Assembly: GCA_040776945.1 (NCBI GenBank)
Contig: JAXGZN010000002.1
Coordinates: 800,001-864,000, forward strand
From: Methanomassiliicoccaceae archaeon
Lineage (GTDB): Archaea > Thermoplasmatota > Thermoplasmata > Methanomassiliicoccales > Methanomassiliicoccaceae
Direction: 5' to 3'
Length of the DNA: 64,000 nucleotides
The notes beneath the pieces are model-generated. The model was not told where the DNA came from. It worked only from the letters and a program-made list of their open reading frames with translations, and made no database searches. Below, piece after piece: positions 37,819 through 51,538 of this stretch (position 1 is its first letter; each line of letters opens with the position of its first letter). A program made the translations under genes and the position numbers.

Positions 37819-38139
37819 TCACAGAAGGACCAGGTTCACTACGAAGGACGCGACGAGGCCCGGAAGCGACAGGACTATGCCGAGAAATGCCAGCGTGTTC
37901 CCCTCGCTCTTCTTGGACAGGGACACGGCTCCGAGGATGACACCCGCCGGGGTGAAGATTGTGGGCAGCACAATGAAGCTGGCCATGCCCAGCACCACCG
38001 AGCCTATGGCCCAGTTCCTCTCCGGAGCGCGAACGGATGATGGTTGAGGATGGTAGTAAGCGGGCGGGCAGGGTGAGGGCACCGGAAACCTATTGCCGCA
38101 CCTCGGGCAGAAGCTGCCGATCGGGACCACCTCCCGCAT
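37819..38139 (-). CDS. Small membrane protein with zinc-ribbon, Pro-rich linker and two TM helices (DUF4190-like)
   Basis: FCPRCG, Pro/Tyr linker, AIGS.VLG..S and A..GIVLS helices. Confidence 0.65.
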   Translation of the reverse strand: MREVVPIGSFCPRCGNRFPVPSPCPPAYYHPQPSSVRAPERNWAIGSVVLGMASFIVLPTIFTPAGVILGAVSLSKKSEGNTLAFLGIVLSLPGLVASFVVNLVLL

Positions 38140-38294
38140 GTCGAGAAGAATATGACCAGAAATCAATGTCGGGCTATTTAATATCATTATGGTATTACTA
38201 TTATAATTATTTATGATTATGTCCTGTTCTCAACCCTGATGTTAAGGGCCTCGATCGTGCGATAAGTGTAGGAGACCGGGCATTAAGAAATGAG

Positions 38295-38397
38295 TGGGGC
38301 CGGGACCGAGATTTGAACTCGGGTGTACGGATATCCGCCAATGGCCTGCTGCCATGGTAGGCTGCAGTCCGCCACATGGCCGCTCTGTCATCCCGGC
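38295..38397 (-). tRNA. tRNA-Cys(GCA) with a 29-nt intron at 37/38; CCA encoded; discriminator reads C73
   Basis: Cloverleaf: acceptor GCCGGGA/TCCCGGC, anticodon arm GCGGA-CTGCAG^A-TCCGT, T arm CCGAG-TTCAAAT-CTCGG. TAATATAT box lies about 25 nt upstream. Confidence 0.93.
38333..38361 (-). other. Archaeal tRNA intron with bulge-helix-bulge motif
   Basis: CUGC (32-35) pairs with intron GCGG. The 3-nt bulges are AGC and ATA, with an internal ATGGC/GCCAT hairpin. Confidence 0.88.
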
Positions 38398-38612
38398 GTC
38401 TGGGGTAGAATTGGCTACCCATATATTAGAATATCGTACCCACGTTGAACTGGATAAGCGGGATGATTGGTTTCTTTTCCTCCTCGAGCTAAAACGAAAC
38501 CAGTCCCCCACTGGTCGATATGCTAGTGCTTGTTCAAATTACATAAATCTTGATAGAAACAAAAAGAAACGATTTCTGTTGATCGCCTTCTATAATCAAT
38601 GGACCCTAGGTT

Positions 38613-40243
38613 CTATTTCGAAAATTGTTCACATGACCTGCACACACTTTTTTTCTTCATGAATGCTCCCCTAGTTGTAGAGCAGATGGAACATGTCACC
38701 CTAGTGCAGACCGAACATATTGTTCTATGTTTCTCGCAAATAAGCCTGCCGCAGATCTGACATGGATTTGAACAGGTGTGGCAAATAAGTTGGTTGCAAA
38801 TATTGCATGCAACGGACAGGTGCTCATTACAGTATCTCTGGCCACAAGAAGAACATTGCACATTGTGATTGTCACATAACCACTTTCCGCACATGGAGCA
38901 CTGAACGATGTGCTTATCGCATAACGCATCTCCACAAACGTCACAGACAGCACTGGTGGTCTTTCTCTGGATCTTGACCAGACTCTTCAGTAAATGGTTT
39001 GGACAGACAGTAATGGTATCTTCAAGCATTGTTCCGCTTCCCGCTAGCATCCTTCGAGCATGAATTCTGCCAGATGAGCTGAAACCAAGTTCCCATAAAG
39101 GCACAAATATGGGTCTAGTGTCGTTTAGAACGATTTCGTCATTTCTAGGTACATAGACCTTAGAGGTCATATGGCCGTTCTTAGTAGTGTATCTGAATTC
39201 TTGCGTATTGTGTCTAGTGATCTCAAGTAGGGCTCGCCTTTTTGCTTCCTTCCTATCGATCATTGGAACGATTTTGACCAATTCATAATTGGCCCCGCCA
39301 CTAGAAAAATAGCTATTCGAGATCCCTAATGCTAACTCTCTTGATATTGCTACATCTTCCGCTAATTCTCCGGTGAATGCTTGTTTTATTTTTCCTAATC
39401 CGGATGATAAGCTTGCGTCGATTATCGCCCCATCCTCTCTTTGCAAGAATATTTCATCGGGATCTATACCATTTATGACACAGAAGCCAACGTCATTGAT
39501 CCTTTTTACAGAACCATCAGGCAATCTAAAGTCAGCTCTCAAACGATAGCTTATTCGATAATATGGCTTCCAGACCAGTCTTGCGCTTTCAATCATTACC
39601 TTTTCTGAGTTTCTAAGGTTAAGCTTGGTCGCTTCCTCAAAGCTCACTTGTTGGGGCACCGCGTGCATGAACCTTTCTTGATGGTTGGGAGAACGACCGC
39701 TTCTCAGTTCCAGTATGCGCATAGCCAGATCGTCCTTCTCCCAAATTGTTATGCCATTGGCTTCTGCTACTTCTTTTGCGTCATGTGTTATTCTTGAATA
39801 AACGACAAAAAGCCCGTTCTTTATGCCAGTCGCTTTCAATGCATTGCAGAAGTAGTACACCTTTTCCCTGCCAACAGCATTTAAGTAGTACTTGCACTCA
39901 ACCGCTTTCTGAAGTTGTGTACCATCTCTACTCTTTGTTGTAAGTATATCTATCTCCCAATACTGACCATCGGTTCCGAGGAGTCTAACGTTCCTTTGGG
40001 TCGAGTAGCCCTCAGAAGCAAGGATCTCTTCTATTAGCACTTCGAACTTGTTCCCTAGGTCCTTTCTAGAAAGAGAGGTGCTCAGGCGTTCCTCTGGATG
40101 TTGTTCCTTTTCCTCTTCGTTATTGAGCACGTATGAACTGTTGTATTTGCACTCCCCTGAAATTATTTGATTGCCACAGCCTGTGCAGAACTTTGCTGAT
40201 AGATCTGCAACGGATGGCCACATTGGGAGCAGAACCTAGCCAT
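38613..40243 (-). pseudogene. Zinc-ribbon + Mrr-like PD-(D/E)XK endonuclease + Cys/His-rich repeat protein; apparent 1-nt frameshift near codon 11
   Basis: G..FE, EIDI...VECK nuclease motifs and a C-terminal CxxC..C..H array. The N-terminal MARFCSQCGHP (ATG 40243) is out of frame with ..AKFCTGCG. Low GC. Could be an assembly error. Confidence 0.7.
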
Positions 40244-40592
40244 GGAGTGCCAGATTATGTGTGCCAGCTTATAATTGTTGCATGGGCATCAAGCTATTGC
40301 TTAAACCATCATGCTGGCGATAAGCGAGACATCAAAATTGAGGACGATATCTTAGACCATCCTAAAAAATGATCATTAGGTACTTTCCAACAGCGTGTTG
40401 TTCTGCAAGATGCCTTACCGCATCAGGATCAAAAAAAAGCATGGTCCATAGAACAGGCCTACCTATCTTGCGGATTCAATGCTTTGATTCGTTAGTAATA
40501 TAACGTTATAACATCGGATTCATTGTCTTTTTCCGCTCTTTTCACGAGACCTGCATAAATCGGTGCCGCTCCGTTATTTCAGCACCTAGGTA

Positions 40593-47359: not shown

Positions 47360-48982
47360 TCACCTCTTTGGCGGCGATTCCTCTATATGGATAGGCGAGT
47401 CCGCGTCCGACTCGCAGGTGTCGTGCTCGTGTGGCCTCTTGGCGTCCGGGGGCAGGGGCGGCTCGCGGCCGACCTTGCGCAGATAGTCGTGAATGGCCTC
47501 GTGCAGCGCGTCGGCCGCCAGGTTGGAGCAGTGCATCTTCTGCGGCGGCAACCCGCCGAGGTTGTCGGCGACGTCCTTCCTGGTGATCTTCAGTCCCTCC
47601 TCGAGGGTCTTGCCCTTCGCCAGGTCGGTGACCATGCTGCTGGTGGCGATGGCCGCCCCGCACCCGAAGGTCTTGAACTTGACGTCGATCATGATGTCGT
47701 CCTTGACCGAAATGTATATATACATCATATCTCCACAGTTGTGAGTCGTAAAGGAATCAGTCACAAAGGAATGTTGCCCTGCAATCTCAAAATTGTAGAC
47801 CTTGCCTGTGAAATACTTTGTTTCGATCGATGTGATGGGGGTATAAAGATAGCCATCTTCAATCCAAGAATGGTCTTTTTGTCCTCCGGCTAAGGCACAA
47901 TCCATCTCTAATATTGCACAAAGCTTTTTCAGAGAGCTGCGGTCCCCTACATGTATGCGGTATGCCTCACTGTGGGAAATGCCCTCCATGAGCGAACCTT
48001 TCTCCTTATATACTGAGGGGATTATCCCTTGCCTAAGAAGAAGAGTCTTGATCTGACCAGCTAACTGTTCGGATATTGTTACGTAGCCCCCCCGGGAGCC
48101 TTTCCTTTCAAGATTGATATATCCATCTCCCCTCCATAGTCCCTTGAGCAGGTGTGTCTGCTTCTCGGGCGGCAGGAACAGCAAAAAATCAGGGATATGC
48201 TTATTCGCTGCCCCACTACCAAATAACGATTCGAAGAACCTTGCTAGCTTGGGTTTATATGTATTCACGCATGCAACATTCTGGTGGTCACGGGGGGTTA
48301 TCGAAGCCTCGATTCCAAACAATGAGCGAATACAGTTCTGAACATCTTGATGATATTCGCTCTCATCAAGGTTGAAAGAGAAGCAAAGATGTCCTCTTCC
48401 ACCCACAGTAACAGTGTTCCCCTCAGACAGATAGTAGCCAGCAAGCCTCAGGAAATCCTCATTTATCTTGATACGTTCGGGCAGAGCGTACCTGTCTTCA
48501 GCGGTGGTTCTTAGGTCAAGAGGCATTTCGAAGAACTCCTGGTCCTTGGTCACCTTCAGGATGGGATAGACGGCGATGTCCCGGCGTCCCAGGTCGCTGA
48601 CGTGGTGCCATTCGGGCCTGAGCTTCTTCTTGTGCCTGGTGTAGTTGTACTTGTGCTGCTCCGGCCTCTTGACCGCGAGCACGAGGTGCTCCGGGGTCAT
48701 CTCCACCGTGCCTAGTTTGTTCTTGAGCCGGACGATCGGGCCGCTGTAGTCGCGCACCGAGCGCTGCTCGACGGTCGAGTACACCCCCTCGTGGGTCAGG
48801 ACCCTCTCCTTGACCGGAACGTCCTCGATGCGTTGATAGTGATTGTTCAGCTGGACCAGCGTTCCGCTGACCAGGCACACTGGGTTCCCGACCTGCCCGA
48901 TCCCATCAGCGTCGGGTATCTCTCCCACATTATGGGGGTTCGTGAAATGCTCCATGACCTTCTCAGTGTACGGTGGCGACAT
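47360..48982 (-). CDS. iscU: Fe-S cluster scaffold IscU/NifU-N interrupted by an intein (160 aa after splicing)
   Basis: Y...VMEHF.NP.NVG...G.VGNPV | CGD...KFKTFGCGAAIATSS...LP..KMHCSNLA. Lies directly downstream of iscS. Confidence 0.95.
   Translation of the reverse strand: MSPPYTEKVMEHFTNPHNVGEIPDADGIGQVGNPVCLVSGTLVQLNNHYQRIEDVPVKERVLTHEGVYSTVEQRSVRDYSGPIVRLKNKLGTVEMTPEHLVLAVKRPEQHKYNYTRHKKKLRPEWHHVSDLGRRDIAVYPILKVTKDQEFFEMPLDLRTTAEDRYALPERIKINEDFLRLAGYYLSEGNTVTVGGRGHLCFSFNLDESEYHQDVQNCIRSLFGIEASITPRDHQNVACVNTYKPKLARFFESLFGSGAANKHIPDFLLFLPPEKQTHLLKGLWRGDGYINLERKGSRGGYVTISEQLAGQIKTLLLRQGIIPSVYKEKGSLMEGISHSEAYRIHVGDRSSLKKLCAILEMDCALAGGQKDHSWIEDGYLYTPITSIETKYFTGKVYNFEIAGQHSFVTDSFTTHNCGDMMYIYISVKDDIMIDVKFKTFGCGAAIATSSMVTDLAKGKTLEEGLKITRKDVADNLGGLPPQKMHCSNLAADALHEAIHDYLRKVGREPPLPPDAKRPHEHDTCESDADSPIHIEESPPKR
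47738..48877 (-). mobile_element. 380-aa intein with LAGLIDADG homing endonuclease
   Basis: Block A CLVSGTLV, block B MTPEH, endonuclease motifs LAGYYLSEG and LKGLWRGDG, block F VYNFEIAGQHSF, block G THN followed by Cys+1. Confidence 0.96.
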
Positions 48983-50153
48983 TGTAGTCCACTCCCTCCC
49001 TCAGCGGTGACATCTTCCTCAGGTTCTCTACTATCGGCCCGATGGTGGTGATGAACCTTTCGGCTTCATCCATAGTATTGAACTTGCTCAGCGACAGGCG
49101 CAGCGATCCATGGCACTGCTCGTGCCTCAGACCGAGGCTGCGCAGCACGTGCGAAGGCTCAAGGCTCTTGGTCGAGCAAGCCGAGCCGGTGGAGGCGGCG
49201 AAGCCCTTCATGTCCAGGTGCAGGATCATGCCCTCGCCCTCGATGTAATCGAACCGGAAGTGGGCGTTGTTGCACAGGCGCTTCTCGCCCCGAGGTCCGT
49301 TGAGATAGGAGCGAGGGACCGAGGCAAGCGTTCCCTCTATGAGCCTGTCGCGTATGCGGGACATATTGGCCACGCTTTCCTCCATCTCAGCCATCCCGAT
49401 CTCGAGCGCCTTTCCCAGGCCAACTAGCCCGGGGACGTTCTCCGTAGAGGACCGGAGCCCTCGCTCGTGTCCTCCTCCGTAGATCAACGGCCGCAGCTTC
49501 ACCCCCTTCCGGATGAACAGAGCGCCCACGCCTTTAGGACCGTGGGCCTTGTGCGCCGATAGCGAGAGCATGTCGACCTTGAGCTTGGACAGGTCGATCG
49601 GGACCTTGGTGATCGCCTGGACGGCATCTGTATGGAACAACGCCCCGCCCTCTTTGGCAACCTCTGCGAGCTCCCTGATGGGCTGAATGGAGCCGATCTC
49701 GTTGTTCGCTGCCATGATCGAGACCAGCGTCGTCTCCTTGGTCAAGGACTCCTTGAGATCCTCGATGGACACCAGGCCTTCGGCATCTACCGGAAGGTAG
49801 GTGACCTGGAACCCCTGGGTCTCCAGGAACTGGCAGGTGTGCAGTATGGCGTGATGCTCAACCATAGAGGTGATGATGTGACGGCCTCTGGACGCAAGAG
49901 CGTACGCGGCCCCCTGCAGTGCCAGATTGTCGGATTCCGTGCCGCCGGACGTGAAGATTATGTCCCTTGGCGAGGCCCCCAGGGCCTTGGCGGTCCGCTC
50001 CCTGGCTAGCTCCATAGCATCGTAGGCGTCCCGGCCGAAGGAGTGAAGGGAGGATGCGTTGCCATAGCGTTCAGTGAAGTATGGCAGCATCTCCTCCAGG
50101 ACCCGGGGGTCCACCTTAGTGGTGGCGCTGTTATCGAAATAGACCTTGTCCAT
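48963..50153 (-). CDS. iscS: Cysteine desulfurase, IscS/NifS group I
   Basis: YFDNSATT, GNASSLH, FTSGGTESDN, SAHK PLP lysine, STGSACS catalytic Cys. Confidence 0.96.
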   Translation of the reverse strand: MDKVYFDNSATTKVDPRVLEEMLPYFTERYGNASSLHSFGRDAYDAMELARERTAKALGASPRDIIFTSGGTESDNLALQGAAYALASRGRHIITSMVEHHAILHTCQFLETQGFQVTYLPVDAEGLVSIEDLKESLTKETTLVSIMAANNEIGSIQPIRELAEVAKEGGALFHTDAVQAITKVPIDLSKLKVDMLSLSAHKAHGPKGVGALFIRKGVKLRPLIYGGGHERGLRSSTENVPGLVGLGKALEIGMAEMEESVANMSRIRDRLIEGTLASVPRSYLNGPRGEKRLCNNAHFRFDYIEGEGMILHLDMKGFAASTGSACSTKSLEPSHVLRSLGLRHEQCHGSLRLSLSKFNTMDEAERFITTIGPIVENLRKMSPLREGVDYNVATVH

Positions 50154-50187
50154 CTGCTCACCTTTCAACCTCGAGGACATATATCGG

Positions 50188-50217
50188 ATGGATATAAATA
50201 ACAATAGTTAAATCCAT
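50188..50217. promoter_or_regulatory. Inverted repeat ATGGATATAA-N10-TTAAATCCAT between the divergent iscS and sufS-like genes
   Basis: 9/10 arm match; overlaps the TTTATAT box of iscS. Confidence 0.45.
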
Positions 50218-50326: not shown

Positions 50327-51538
50327 ATGGACGTCGAACGGTTGCGCATGGACTTTCCGCTGTACTTAGGTCCGGAGCGGGACCTCATCTATCTGGATAA
50401 TGCCTGTCAGTCGATGAGGCCCAAGCAGGTAATAGACGCTATCTCCGAATACTACACTGATTATCCGGCGTGCGGGGGTCGATCCGTTCATCGGCTCGCC
50501 ACCAGGGTGGCCGTGAAGATCGAGGAGGCCCGTGAGAAGATAGCGGGGTTCATCGGCTGTTCGGACCCATCGTGCATCGTCTTTACCAAGAACTGCACGG
50601 AAGCGATCAATTTGGTGGCAAAGGGGTTTCCATTCCGCAGAGGGGCGGCCGTGCTTACAACGGACATGGAGCACAACAGCAATCATGTCCCCTGGCTCCA
50701 GCTCCAGGCAGATGGAAAGATCAGACATCGGACGGTTAGGACCCCGCCCTCCGGGCTCTTCGACCTTGAGGCGTACGAGGAGGAGCTGGCCGAAGGAGCG
50801 GACATGGTCTCGATGGTCCACACCAACAACGTCACGGGGACCACTTTGCCGGCGAAGGAGGTGATAGAGGCCGCTCACGACCGTAAGGCATTGGTCATGC
50901 TCGACGGAGCGCAGTCGACCCCGCATCAGCCCATAGATGTGGGCCGTCTCGACGTAGATGCGTTCTGCTTCTCGGCCCACAAGATGCTTGGCCCATCGGG
51001 GGTTGGCGTTCTGTACGCGAAGATGGAGGTGCTGGAGAAGATGCAGCCCTTGCTCGCAGGCGGAGGCAGCGTAGGCATGACCGATTACGAGAGCGTGGAG
51101 TTCCTGCCGCCTCCAGAGAAGTTCGAGGCCGGCCTGCTGAACTACTCCGGGGTGATCGGTACAGCTGCCGCTGTGGACTATCTCCAGGCCATAGGAATGG
51201 ATGAGGTGGCGGAGCACGATAAACGCTTGAACCGCTTTGTTACCGATGAGGTGAAGGGCATGGACCGGGTTACTTTGCTAGGCCCAGAGGACCCCGCGCT
51301 CCGCGACGGTCTTTTCTCTTTTAACGTCAGGGGGATGACGTCTCACGATGTAGCGATGATCATCGATGAGATCGCCAAGGTGCAGATACGTTCGGGCATG
51401 CACTGCATGCACCCGTTCTTCCGCTCCCGAGGTCTCGACGGATGCGCCCGGGCATCGTTCTACCTATACAATACAGAGGCCGAGTGCCGGAGATTCGTAG
51501 AGGCCCTGGCTCACATAGTGGATATCTTCTCCAGCTGA
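50327..51538 (+). CDS. Cysteine desulfurase, SufS-like group II
   Basis: YLDNA, EHNSN, DGAQS, SAHKMLGP, RSGMHC, RASF..YNT. Confidence 0.9.
   Translation: MDVERLRMDFPLYLGPERDLIYLDNACQSMRPKQVIDAISEYYTDYPACGGRSVHRLATRVAVKIEEAREKIAGFIGCSDPSCIVFTKNCTEAINLVAKGFPFRRGAAVLTTDMEHNSNHVPWLQLQADGKIRHRTVRTPPSGLFDLEAYEEELAEGADMVSMVHTNNVTGTTLPAKEVIEAAHDRKALVMLDGAQSTPHQPIDVGRLDVDAFCFSAHKMLGPSGVGVLYAKMEVLEKMQPLLAGGGSVGMTDYESVEFLPPPEKFEAGLLNYSGVIGTAAAVDYLQAIGMDEVAEHDKRLNRFVTDEVKGMDRVTLLGPEDPALRDGLFSFNVRGMTSHDVAMIIDEIAKVQIRSGMHCMHPFFRSRGLDGCARASFYLYNTEAECRRFVEALAHIVDIFSS

Follow-up and report, generated by a model that had tools for sequence, protein, structure and literature searches.

A stretch of 64,000 nucleotides from a Methanomassiliicoccaceae archaeon (assembly GCA_040776945.1, contig JAXGZN010000002.1, positions 800,001 to 864,000 of the forward strand; the whole of this stretch is referred to here as the window) carries an iscU/nifU gene that is interrupted by a predicted intein. 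A single open reading frame (ORF) of 540 amino acids, located on the minus strand at window positions 47360-48982, encodes the N-terminal part of the iron-sulfur (Fe-S) cluster scaffold protein IscU, the intein, and the remainder of IscU. The gene for a nifS-type cysteine desulfurase lies upstream, and its 3′ end overlaps the start of iscU by 20 nt. The features of the locus are as follows:

47360..48982, minus strand: iscU/nifU precursor ORF, 540 aa, coordinates including the stop codon (Pfam and NCBIfam matches)
48878..48982, minus strand: N-extein, IscU residues 1-35, MSPPY...QVGNPV (translation)
47738..48877, minus strand: predicted intein of 380 aa, CLVSGT...FTTHN, from Cys1 to the final His-Asn, proposed name IscU-a allele (translation, AlphaFold2 and Foldseek)
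48686..48697, minus strand: splicing block B, TPEH (TxxH; T96-P-E-H99) (translation)
48419..48451, minus strand: LAGLIDADG motif 1, LRLAGYYLSEG, with the acidic residue Glu187 (translation)
48122..48151, minus strand: LAGLIDADG motif 2, LLKGLWRGDG, with the acidic residue Asp286 (translation; Pfam LAGLIDADG_3 over residues 275-354)
47738..47806, minus strand: splicing blocks F and G, GKVYNFEIAGQHSFVTDSFTTHN, with the penultimate His and terminal Asn (translation; TIGR01443 over residues 394-416)
47735..47737, minus strand: codon of Cys+1 (in CGD), the predicted splicing nucleophile and first cluster-ligand cysteine of IscU (translation)
47360..47737, minus strand: C-extein, IscU residues 416-540 plus the stop, starting CGDMMYIYISVK (stop codon at 47360-47362)
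47660-47662, minus strand: second ligand cysteine, Cys441 (translation)
47528-47533, minus strand: His484-Cys485 (translation)
48963..50204, minus strand: nifS-type cysteine desulfurase, upstream of iscU (TIGR03402 FeS_nifS, 548.5 bits, cut-off 530.75)

The intein begins at Cys36 of the precursor and its C-terminal junction reads ...THN^C (the caret marks a splice junction here and below). Removal of 380 residues from the 540 would leave a protein of 160 amino acids. The original prediction, which had placed the boundaries at these positions and had named the 380-residue insert, its motifs and the 160-residue product, proved right in all of these on translation. NifU_N is recognized by Pfam (E 2.3e-42) in a match that is split into two stretches of the precursor, and the exteins score 189.3 bits against the NCBIfam model TIGR03419 (NifU_clost), just over its cut-off of 187.9. 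Within the insert, LAGLIDADG_3 is matched with an E of 2.6e-13 (50.5 bits, cut-off 22.5), and the intein_Cterm model TIGR01443 with 20.2 bits (cut-off 15.6). As judged from the sequence, the insert is a class-1 intein with a putative LAGLIDADG endonuclease, with all of the tested defining features present except the aspartate of block F.

The same arrangement recurs among homologues. When 5.8 billion protein clusters were searched within a length band of 297-945 aa, 1058 matches were obtained at E <= 1e-3, of which the best 120 were aligned with MAFFT. PF14528 and PF01592 are both present in all of these 120, and in every one of them the intein occupies one common site (GNxx^C...HN^CGD). The first cysteine of the intein, the Thr and His of block B, the His-Asn pair and Cys+1 are each invariant among the 120, as are the C, the G and the D of the CGD motif, and the acidic residues at the endonuclease positions Glu187 and Asp286 are each kept in 117. 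The length of the intein among homologues ranges from 374 to 382 aa. Database names for these proteins are "iron-sulfur cluster assembly scaffold protein", "nitrogen fixation NifU-like protein" and, once, a name ending in "/WhiA".

An AlphaFold2 model of the precursor, computed from 114 aligned homologues, has a mean predicted local distance difference test score (pLDDT) of 88.2 and a predicted template modelling score of 0.79, with pLDDT falling below 50 only in the last 28 residues (513-540). When this model was compared with the Protein Data Bank (PDB) by Foldseek, the top matches were endonuclease-bearing inteins, led by TliVMA (7qsu; E 4.9e-22, probability 1.00) and followed by PI-SceI, PI-PkoII, PhoVMA and PI-PfuI, after which came IscU structures for the extein part. 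A sequence search of the PDB by itself could detect only PI-PkoII (E 2.2e-5). The model is predicted to have the HINT fold expected of a class-1 intein. The predicted combination of a HINT domain with a two-motif LAGLIDADG domain is shared with TliVMA and PhoVMA (7qsu, 7qss, 7qst), PI-SceI (1vde, 1lws), PI-PkoII (2cw7) and PI-PfuI (1dq3), at Foldseek E values of 4.9e-22 to 1.7e-14. These structured inteins differ from the IscU intein in that identity is only 10-18%, their hosts are the VMA ATPase, DNA polymerase and ribonucleotide reductase, and the IscU intein has an Asn in block F where Asp is usual.

The exteins are those of an ordinary IscU, like the protein of PDB entry 7c8m ("Nitrogen-fixing NifU domain protein"), here with a NifS-type desulfurase gene directly upstream, and the C-extein is 72% identical in the Foldseek comparison to 4eb5_C, the IscU of A. 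fulgidus. Unlike 7c8m and 4eb5, the gene in the window contains the insert of 380 aa and encodes a C-terminal tail of about 35 aa modelled with low confidence. This tail is rich in proline and acidic residues (REPPLPP..., window 47363-47470, residues about 505-540) and is common to the intein-bearing and intein-less family alleles that were read; in genome G017 it runs off the contig end.

The ligand set of the scaffold is complete in the precursor (C416-G-D418, C441 and H484-C485). An intein-less IscU from the same genus (genome G001, locus L014; a 161-aa translation including the stop), with exteins collinear with those of the window, matches the solved archaeal IscU 7c8m with an E of 1.4e-56, and its CGD, GCG and HCS motifs are all aligned. 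Its CGD falls on Cys38-Gly39-Asp40 of 7c8m and its HC on His106-Cys107; the titles of PDB entries for variants of the 7c8m protein name D40 and H106. The predicted splicing nucleophile Cys+1 is therefore the first cluster-ligand cysteine of IscU, so that the earlier claim of an Fe-S ligand at this position is borne out by way of an intein-less allele. The genome that contains the window (2.17 Mb, 99.8% complete) has no second NifU_N locus, which leaves unrealized the possibility, raised in the original prediction, that another iscU copy does the job. A protein of the SufB/SufD core is encoded in the same genome.

No paper on an intein in IscU or NifU was found by a full-text literature search (survey supplements and InBase lay outside it), in agreement with the earlier guess that IscU was not a described intein host. 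Intein-containing NCBIfam models that were matched are those for Tes, RecA and GyrA, with none for IscU. The best of these curated models is NF045703 (intein-containing Tes, a radical SAM protein; E 2.8e-18, 65.1 bits, residues 163-416), which describes a related intein in another archaeal Fe-S enzyme; the score is far under its 1700-bit cut-off, only the intein part matches, and the host protein differs. IscU, the central scaffold of the ISC/NIF route, joins the list of intein hosts, where SufB is the only host from Fe-S biogenesis in the searchable literature. Current annotation as "scaffold protein", "NifU-like" or in part "WhiA" would be corrected by a curated model for intein-containing IscU.

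The IscU-site intein is spread over distant phyla. A scan of 185,579 species, with one genome each and using an intein-only alignment with two peptide patterns, found 87 relatives, of which 80 were kept as named loci; these counts are a lower bound. Reading of the junctions assigned 33 of the 80 loci to the IscU site (of these, one is truncated at the end of its contig and another has a frameshift), 37 to WCPG^CGDF in another host, three to CA(L/T)^CD(A/G)P, and seven to single sites. By record title, 24 of the IscU-site loci are archaeal and nine are bacterial. The archaeal labels include Methanomassiliicoccus (2), Methanomassiliicoccales and two metagenome-assembled genomes (MAGs) labelled Methanosarcinales, the DPANN labels Nano-, Woese-, Pace-, Iain-, Micr- and Altiarchaeota, and the Asgard labels Sifarchaeum and Borrarchaeum. 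The nine bacterial loci, of the candidate phyla radiation (CPR), are labelled Saccharibacteria, Patescibacteria, Parcubacteria, Nealsonbacteria, Gribaldobacteria and uncultured bacterium. All such taxon names are MAG record labels, and the bacterial ones may be real or may be binning errors; in the intein tree, most of the nine bacterial-labelled loci cluster together, along with two that carry archaeal labels. Over the initial 600 nt of the intein, loci L019 and L020 match those of genomes G007 and G002 exactly and are apparently the same loci, so that the NCBI label Methanomassiliicoccus applies to the genus of the window. Across 31 loci the DNA flanking the insertion site reads GTnGGnAATCCnGTn^TGCGGnGAC. 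The check for IscU/NifU inteins at GNPx^CGD that had been proposed earlier thus had a divided outcome: no published description was found, yet the allele is common in public sequences and not unique to this genome. An allele shared across DPANN, Asgard archaea, CPR and Methanomassiliicoccales could mark gene flow among uncultured anaerobes.

Within the host family the distribution is patchy. The family was represented by 24 genomes including the window's own, and 17 genomes were drawn from other families of the order. The intein is present in 10 of the 24, with an open frame in six (G000, G002, G007 with a masked stretch, G010, G014 and G021) and a broken frame in four (G005, G022, G008 and G013). 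In eleven family genomes the IscU or IscU-like gene lacks an intein, and no IscU match was found in G006 (67% complete) and G020 among the 24. In the other families of the order none of the 17 genomes has an intein in IscU, and an intein-less IscU-like gene is found in 13. Empty sites occur close to the window's allele: G001 and G003, of the same genus, encode an IscU of about 160 aa that reads EVGNPVCGDLM and EVGNPQCGDIM, with no insert (loci L014 and L013), and four genomes of sister genera (G015, G017, G019 and G023; L099-L102) have intein-less alleles in which GNPx-CGD is contiguous. DNA identity between relatives is 0.54-0.73 for the intein in 44 of 45 pairs (0.89 in the remaining pair) and 0.73-0.90 for the exteins.

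The broken alleles differ from one another. That of G005 (L012) has stops and frameshifts, that of G022 (L010) has a frameshift inside the intein, and in G008 (L009) and G013 (L011) the lesions are a 1-nt insertion and several indels, respectively, within the C-extein 15-20 codons past the C-junction. Among genomes where the gene lacks the intein, G004 (L103) retains only a C-terminal iscU remnant, and G011 (L104) has an IscU-like gene that reads GNQADGD, with Asp at the position of the first ligand cysteine, and KMSCS instead of KMHCS. The broken alleles may represent true decay or errors of draft assembly. The idea that presence of the intein causes decay of the gene was considered and dropped: broken frames were counted in four of 10 intein-bearing alleles against one remnant among seven intein-less orthologous alleles (G001, G003, G015, G017, G019, G023 and the G004 remnant, with divergent paralog-like alleles excluded), and it was set aside in view of the small numbers, the kinship of the genomes and the likelihood of draft-assembly errors.

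The composition of the intein sets it apart from its host gene. In all 10 intein-bearing relatives the guanine-plus-cytosine (GC) content of the intein is lower than that of the exteins. In the window the intein has a GC of 0.510, whereas the C-extein reaches 0.619 and the window as a whole 0.597; of all stretches of that size in the window, 4% have GC as low. At third codon positions the values are 0.62 for the intein and 0.91 for the extein. The proportion of nonsynonymous differences (pN) is far below that of synonymous differences (pS) in both the splicing part and the endonuclease part of the intein, and the ratio of the corresponding rates (dN/dS) is 0.09-0.18 in three of six pairs, dS being saturated in the other three. 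The intein is under purifying selection.

The stretch is matched in metagenomes from digesters and sludge and in metatranscriptome libraries. Contigs from RNA libraries (three runs) extend without any joint across the N-junction (48877/48878) as well as the C-junction (47737/47738), with 31 letters or more to either side, and one contig from a DNA run, which is possibly the source of the assembly, spans the whole stretch unbroken. No contig that joins the exteins across the intein was found, and hence no intein-less allele from this population; rare variants are dropped from contigs, so that absence is not implied. The RNA-library contigs fit an unspliced mRNA from which the insert would be removed at the protein level, as an intein and not an intron, a reading that is supported, not proven. 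The contigs also bear on whether a foreign intein might have been joined to iscU by faulty or chimeric assembly, an explanation for which no evidence was found and which was considered only as the genome is metagenome-derived and the GC of the insert differs. Such an artefact is scarcely credible, given that the same in-frame layout is found in all of the best 120 protein clusters and at 33 of 80 independent genome loci, and that the DNA-run contig holds the stretch in one piece and the RNA-library contigs bridge both junctions.

A further explanation is that the gene is dead, the intein no longer splicing and iscU being lost, with SUF performing all Fe-S assembly. The presence of a SufB-type gene would agree with this, as would the decayed alleles of G005, G022, G008 and G013 and the remnant in G004. 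Those alleles are, however, from draft metagenome genomes in which assembly errors are possible, and in the window the 540-aa frame is uninterrupted and retains all of the catalytic and ligand residues. The low pN relative to pS, the coverage of the gene by RNA-library contigs, and the position of nifS directly upstream and overlapping the start of iscU likewise speak for a functional gene, and we regard its loss as highly improbable in the case of the window's allele.

In our view, IscU-a is likely to be an ordinary homing intein, probably still mobile, that occupies a new host site within the only iscU/nifU gene of the genome. The combination of empty sites in sister species, foreign composition, a conserved endonuclease, decay in some lineages and a spread over distant phyla is typical of homing inteins. 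Translation of the nifS-iscU mRNA would yield the 540-aa precursor, in which Cys1 would undergo an N-S acyl shift aided by the Thr and His of block B. Cys+1 would then attack the thioester, the terminal Asn would cyclise, and the exteins would be ligated, giving a 160-aa IscU laid out exactly as in sister species whose alleles lack the intein. Once released, the intein would act as a two-motif LAGLIDADG enzyme that cuts intein-less iscU alleles and copies itself into them, that is, by homing. The choice of insertion site can be explained by its position in one of the gene's most conserved stretches, which offers a stable target for the endonuclease and also supplies the cysteine for splicing. 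The element would be a selfish one that is tolerated by its host since splicing is efficient. If splicing does respond to oxidants or metals, the response would be a side effect of the chemistry of Cys1 and Cys+1 and no selected switch.

Several observations weigh against this interpretation. The Pfam model Intein_splicing is matched with only 18.3 bits, under its cut-off of 35.8. At the aspartate position of block F the window has Asn (VYNFE), as do 119 of the best 120 homologues. The block F aspartate is not known to be an absolute requirement for inteins. Asp is, according to PMC8891592, the usual residue at this position and is generally credited with activating Cys+1. Because the Asn is found in 119 of the 120 homologues, it represents a conserved trait of this intein family and not decay. 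RNA libraries can contain DNA, so transcription is supported, not proven. The tree of extein DNA, in which intein-less alleles are placed among intein-bearing ones in two genera, is built on about 400 nt with weak nodes and was used only for the intermixing of alleles. The intein tree roughly groups by genus, and much of the pattern could reflect old vertical descent with losses instead of ongoing homing. In G002 (L005/L020), of the same genus, motif 1 reads GYYISVGS and so has Val where the catalytic Glu should be; the intein is otherwise open. This suggests that the endonuclease has been inactivated there and is decaying in at least one lineage. Finally, splicing, endonuclease activity and homing of the IscU intein are matters that we infer.

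Related inteins are found in other hosts, a number of them at cysteines of metal or redox sites. A second intein in the window's genome, 27% identical to IscU-a, lies in a radical-SAM ORF of 710 aa (L018:1219-3351; G000:C1, intein at about 355315-356397), where it is inserted in CNFRCRH^C...VCN^CQN and its Cys+1 is the third cysteine of a CxxxCxxC cluster motif. A contig of a Caldiserica MAG, cut at its 5′ end (L091:2-1963), encodes an IscU with two inteins, one at the first ligand cysteine (HN^CGDMM) and one at the second (KTFG^C...HN^CGAAIA). The 37 loci at WCPG^CGDF have an intein that is 30-38% identical and lies in the beta subunit of 2-oxoacid:ferredoxin oxidoreductase (OFOR); they are L050, L052-L066, L068-L075, L077-L083, L085, L087, L088, L090, L093 and L096, with record titles of Thaumarchaeota, Bipolaricaulota and others. 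The OFOR-beta C-extein starts at residue 15 of 5b48_B, to which its Cys+1 aligns, and we take Cys12 and Cys15 of the 5b48 protein to be ligands of its [4Fe-4S] cluster. The OFOR-beta and IscU sites share the DNA flanks CCnGnn^TGCGGnGA, which hints at a jump of the intein between the two hosts.

Other hosts with an insertion at a cysteine, identified, like the preceding ones, with Pfam, are a TrxR-like flavoprotein (inside CxxC; L076, L084 and L086), a 4Fe-4S ferredoxin (CIG^CAAC; L095) and SufB (EG^CTAP; L098), the last being an intein related to the IscU one in a Micrarchaeota genome. Some proteins in the set made up of these loci with P0146, P0262 and P0268 have C-exteins that start C(V/R/E)(V)NGPGE, presumably resembling the ligand motif of IspG. 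A wider search with the intein only covered 1.84 billion cluster representatives and gave 7421 matches at E <= 1e-3, of which 220 were at E <= 1e-30. Among 153 resolved C-junctions of the best 150 cluster representatives, 121 have Cys at +1, 25 have Ser, six have Thr and one has Asn.

The strong form of the idea that these inteins form a clade specific to Fe-S cysteines was rejected, since metal sites account for a minority of the hosts; the wider clade includes inteins in a DNA methylase, a glycosyltransferase, an acetyl-CoA synthetase and HerA. On the sequences compared, the Fe-S theme appears to be real but not exclusive, and it is partly expected because conserved cysteines are often ligands and inteins with Cys+1 need a conserved cysteine. 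A related proposal is that IscU-a is one of a group of related LAGLIDADG inteins placed on metal- or redox-active cysteines in the Fe-S machinery of anaerobes, where a nucleophile that is also a ligand makes maturation dependent on a reduced, metal-free thiol. The sites counted for that group are Cys1 and Cys2 of IscU, Cys15 of OFOR-beta, the CxxC of the ferredoxin, the CxxxCxxC of the radical-SAM protein, the CxxC of the TrxR-like protein and the conserved cysteine of EGC(T/S)AP in SufB. We consider this proposal unlikely; if it were true, small-genome anaerobes (DPANN, CPR and Methanomassiliicoccales) would have acquired a checkpoint on Fe-S assembly that is sensitive to oxygen and metals.

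The same sites enter into the question, raised in the original prediction, of whether IscU-a is a conditional-splicing switch, in which oxidation (by a disulfide between Cys1 and Cys+1), metal or persulfidation would hold IscU as an inactive precursor until conditions become reducing. The closest precedent from Fe-S biogenesis is the SufB intein of M. tuberculosis, for which PMC8529194 describes a Cys1-Cys+1 disulfide under oxidants and a requirement of splicing for SufBCD assembly; in PMC8891592, Cys+1 of this intein is Cys612 and Asn611 is intein residue 359. The IscU and SufB inteins are alike in being class-1 inteins with Cys1 and Cys+1, lodged in a core Fe-S assembly protein that must be spliced first. 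They differ in that the IscU host is of the NIF/ISC type and the SufB host of the SUF type, that Cys+1 in IscU directly coordinates the nascent cluster, and that the IscU intein is known from sequence. Any intein with Cys1 and Cys+1 could plausibly splice in a manner that responds to oxidants or zinc, as is documented for the SufB intein of M. tuberculosis (PMC8529194, PMC8891592).

The presence of both cysteines, with Cys+1 itself a cluster ligand, the single iscU in the window's genome, and the related inteins at OFOR-beta, ferredoxin, the TrxR-like CxxC, the radical-SAM CxxxCxxC and the second IscU cysteine are all in keeping with such a switch. A selected regulator would, however, be expected to be retained throughout a lineage, but 10 of the family's 24 genomes have the intein and none of the 17 from other families of the order does; it is present in some and absent from other species of the same genus that are expected to share their physiology, and four of the 10 intein-bearing family alleles have broken frames. 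A SufB-type system is available as an alternative, the composition marks the intein as foreign, the conserved endonuclease residues are explained by mobility and not by regulation, and the wider intein clade is also found at many non-metal sites. A selected switch is for these reasons an unlikely account of the locus, and the IscU intein alone shows no new regulatory principle. What the intein at this unusual site does offer, through a splicing thiol that is the later cluster-binding thiol, is a clean test system for interference between intein and cofactor chemistry.

Two further features of the window were noted. A second class-V aminotransferase gene, cysteine desulfurase-like (50327-51538, plus strand; Aminotran_5, E 3.9e-112), is divergent from nifS-iscU. 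The stretch of lowest GC in the window (38000-40500; 0.42-0.47 compared with 0.60 overall) holds an ORF of 536 aa (38613-40223, minus strand) with an Mrr_cat restriction-endonuclease domain and is probably another acquired island.

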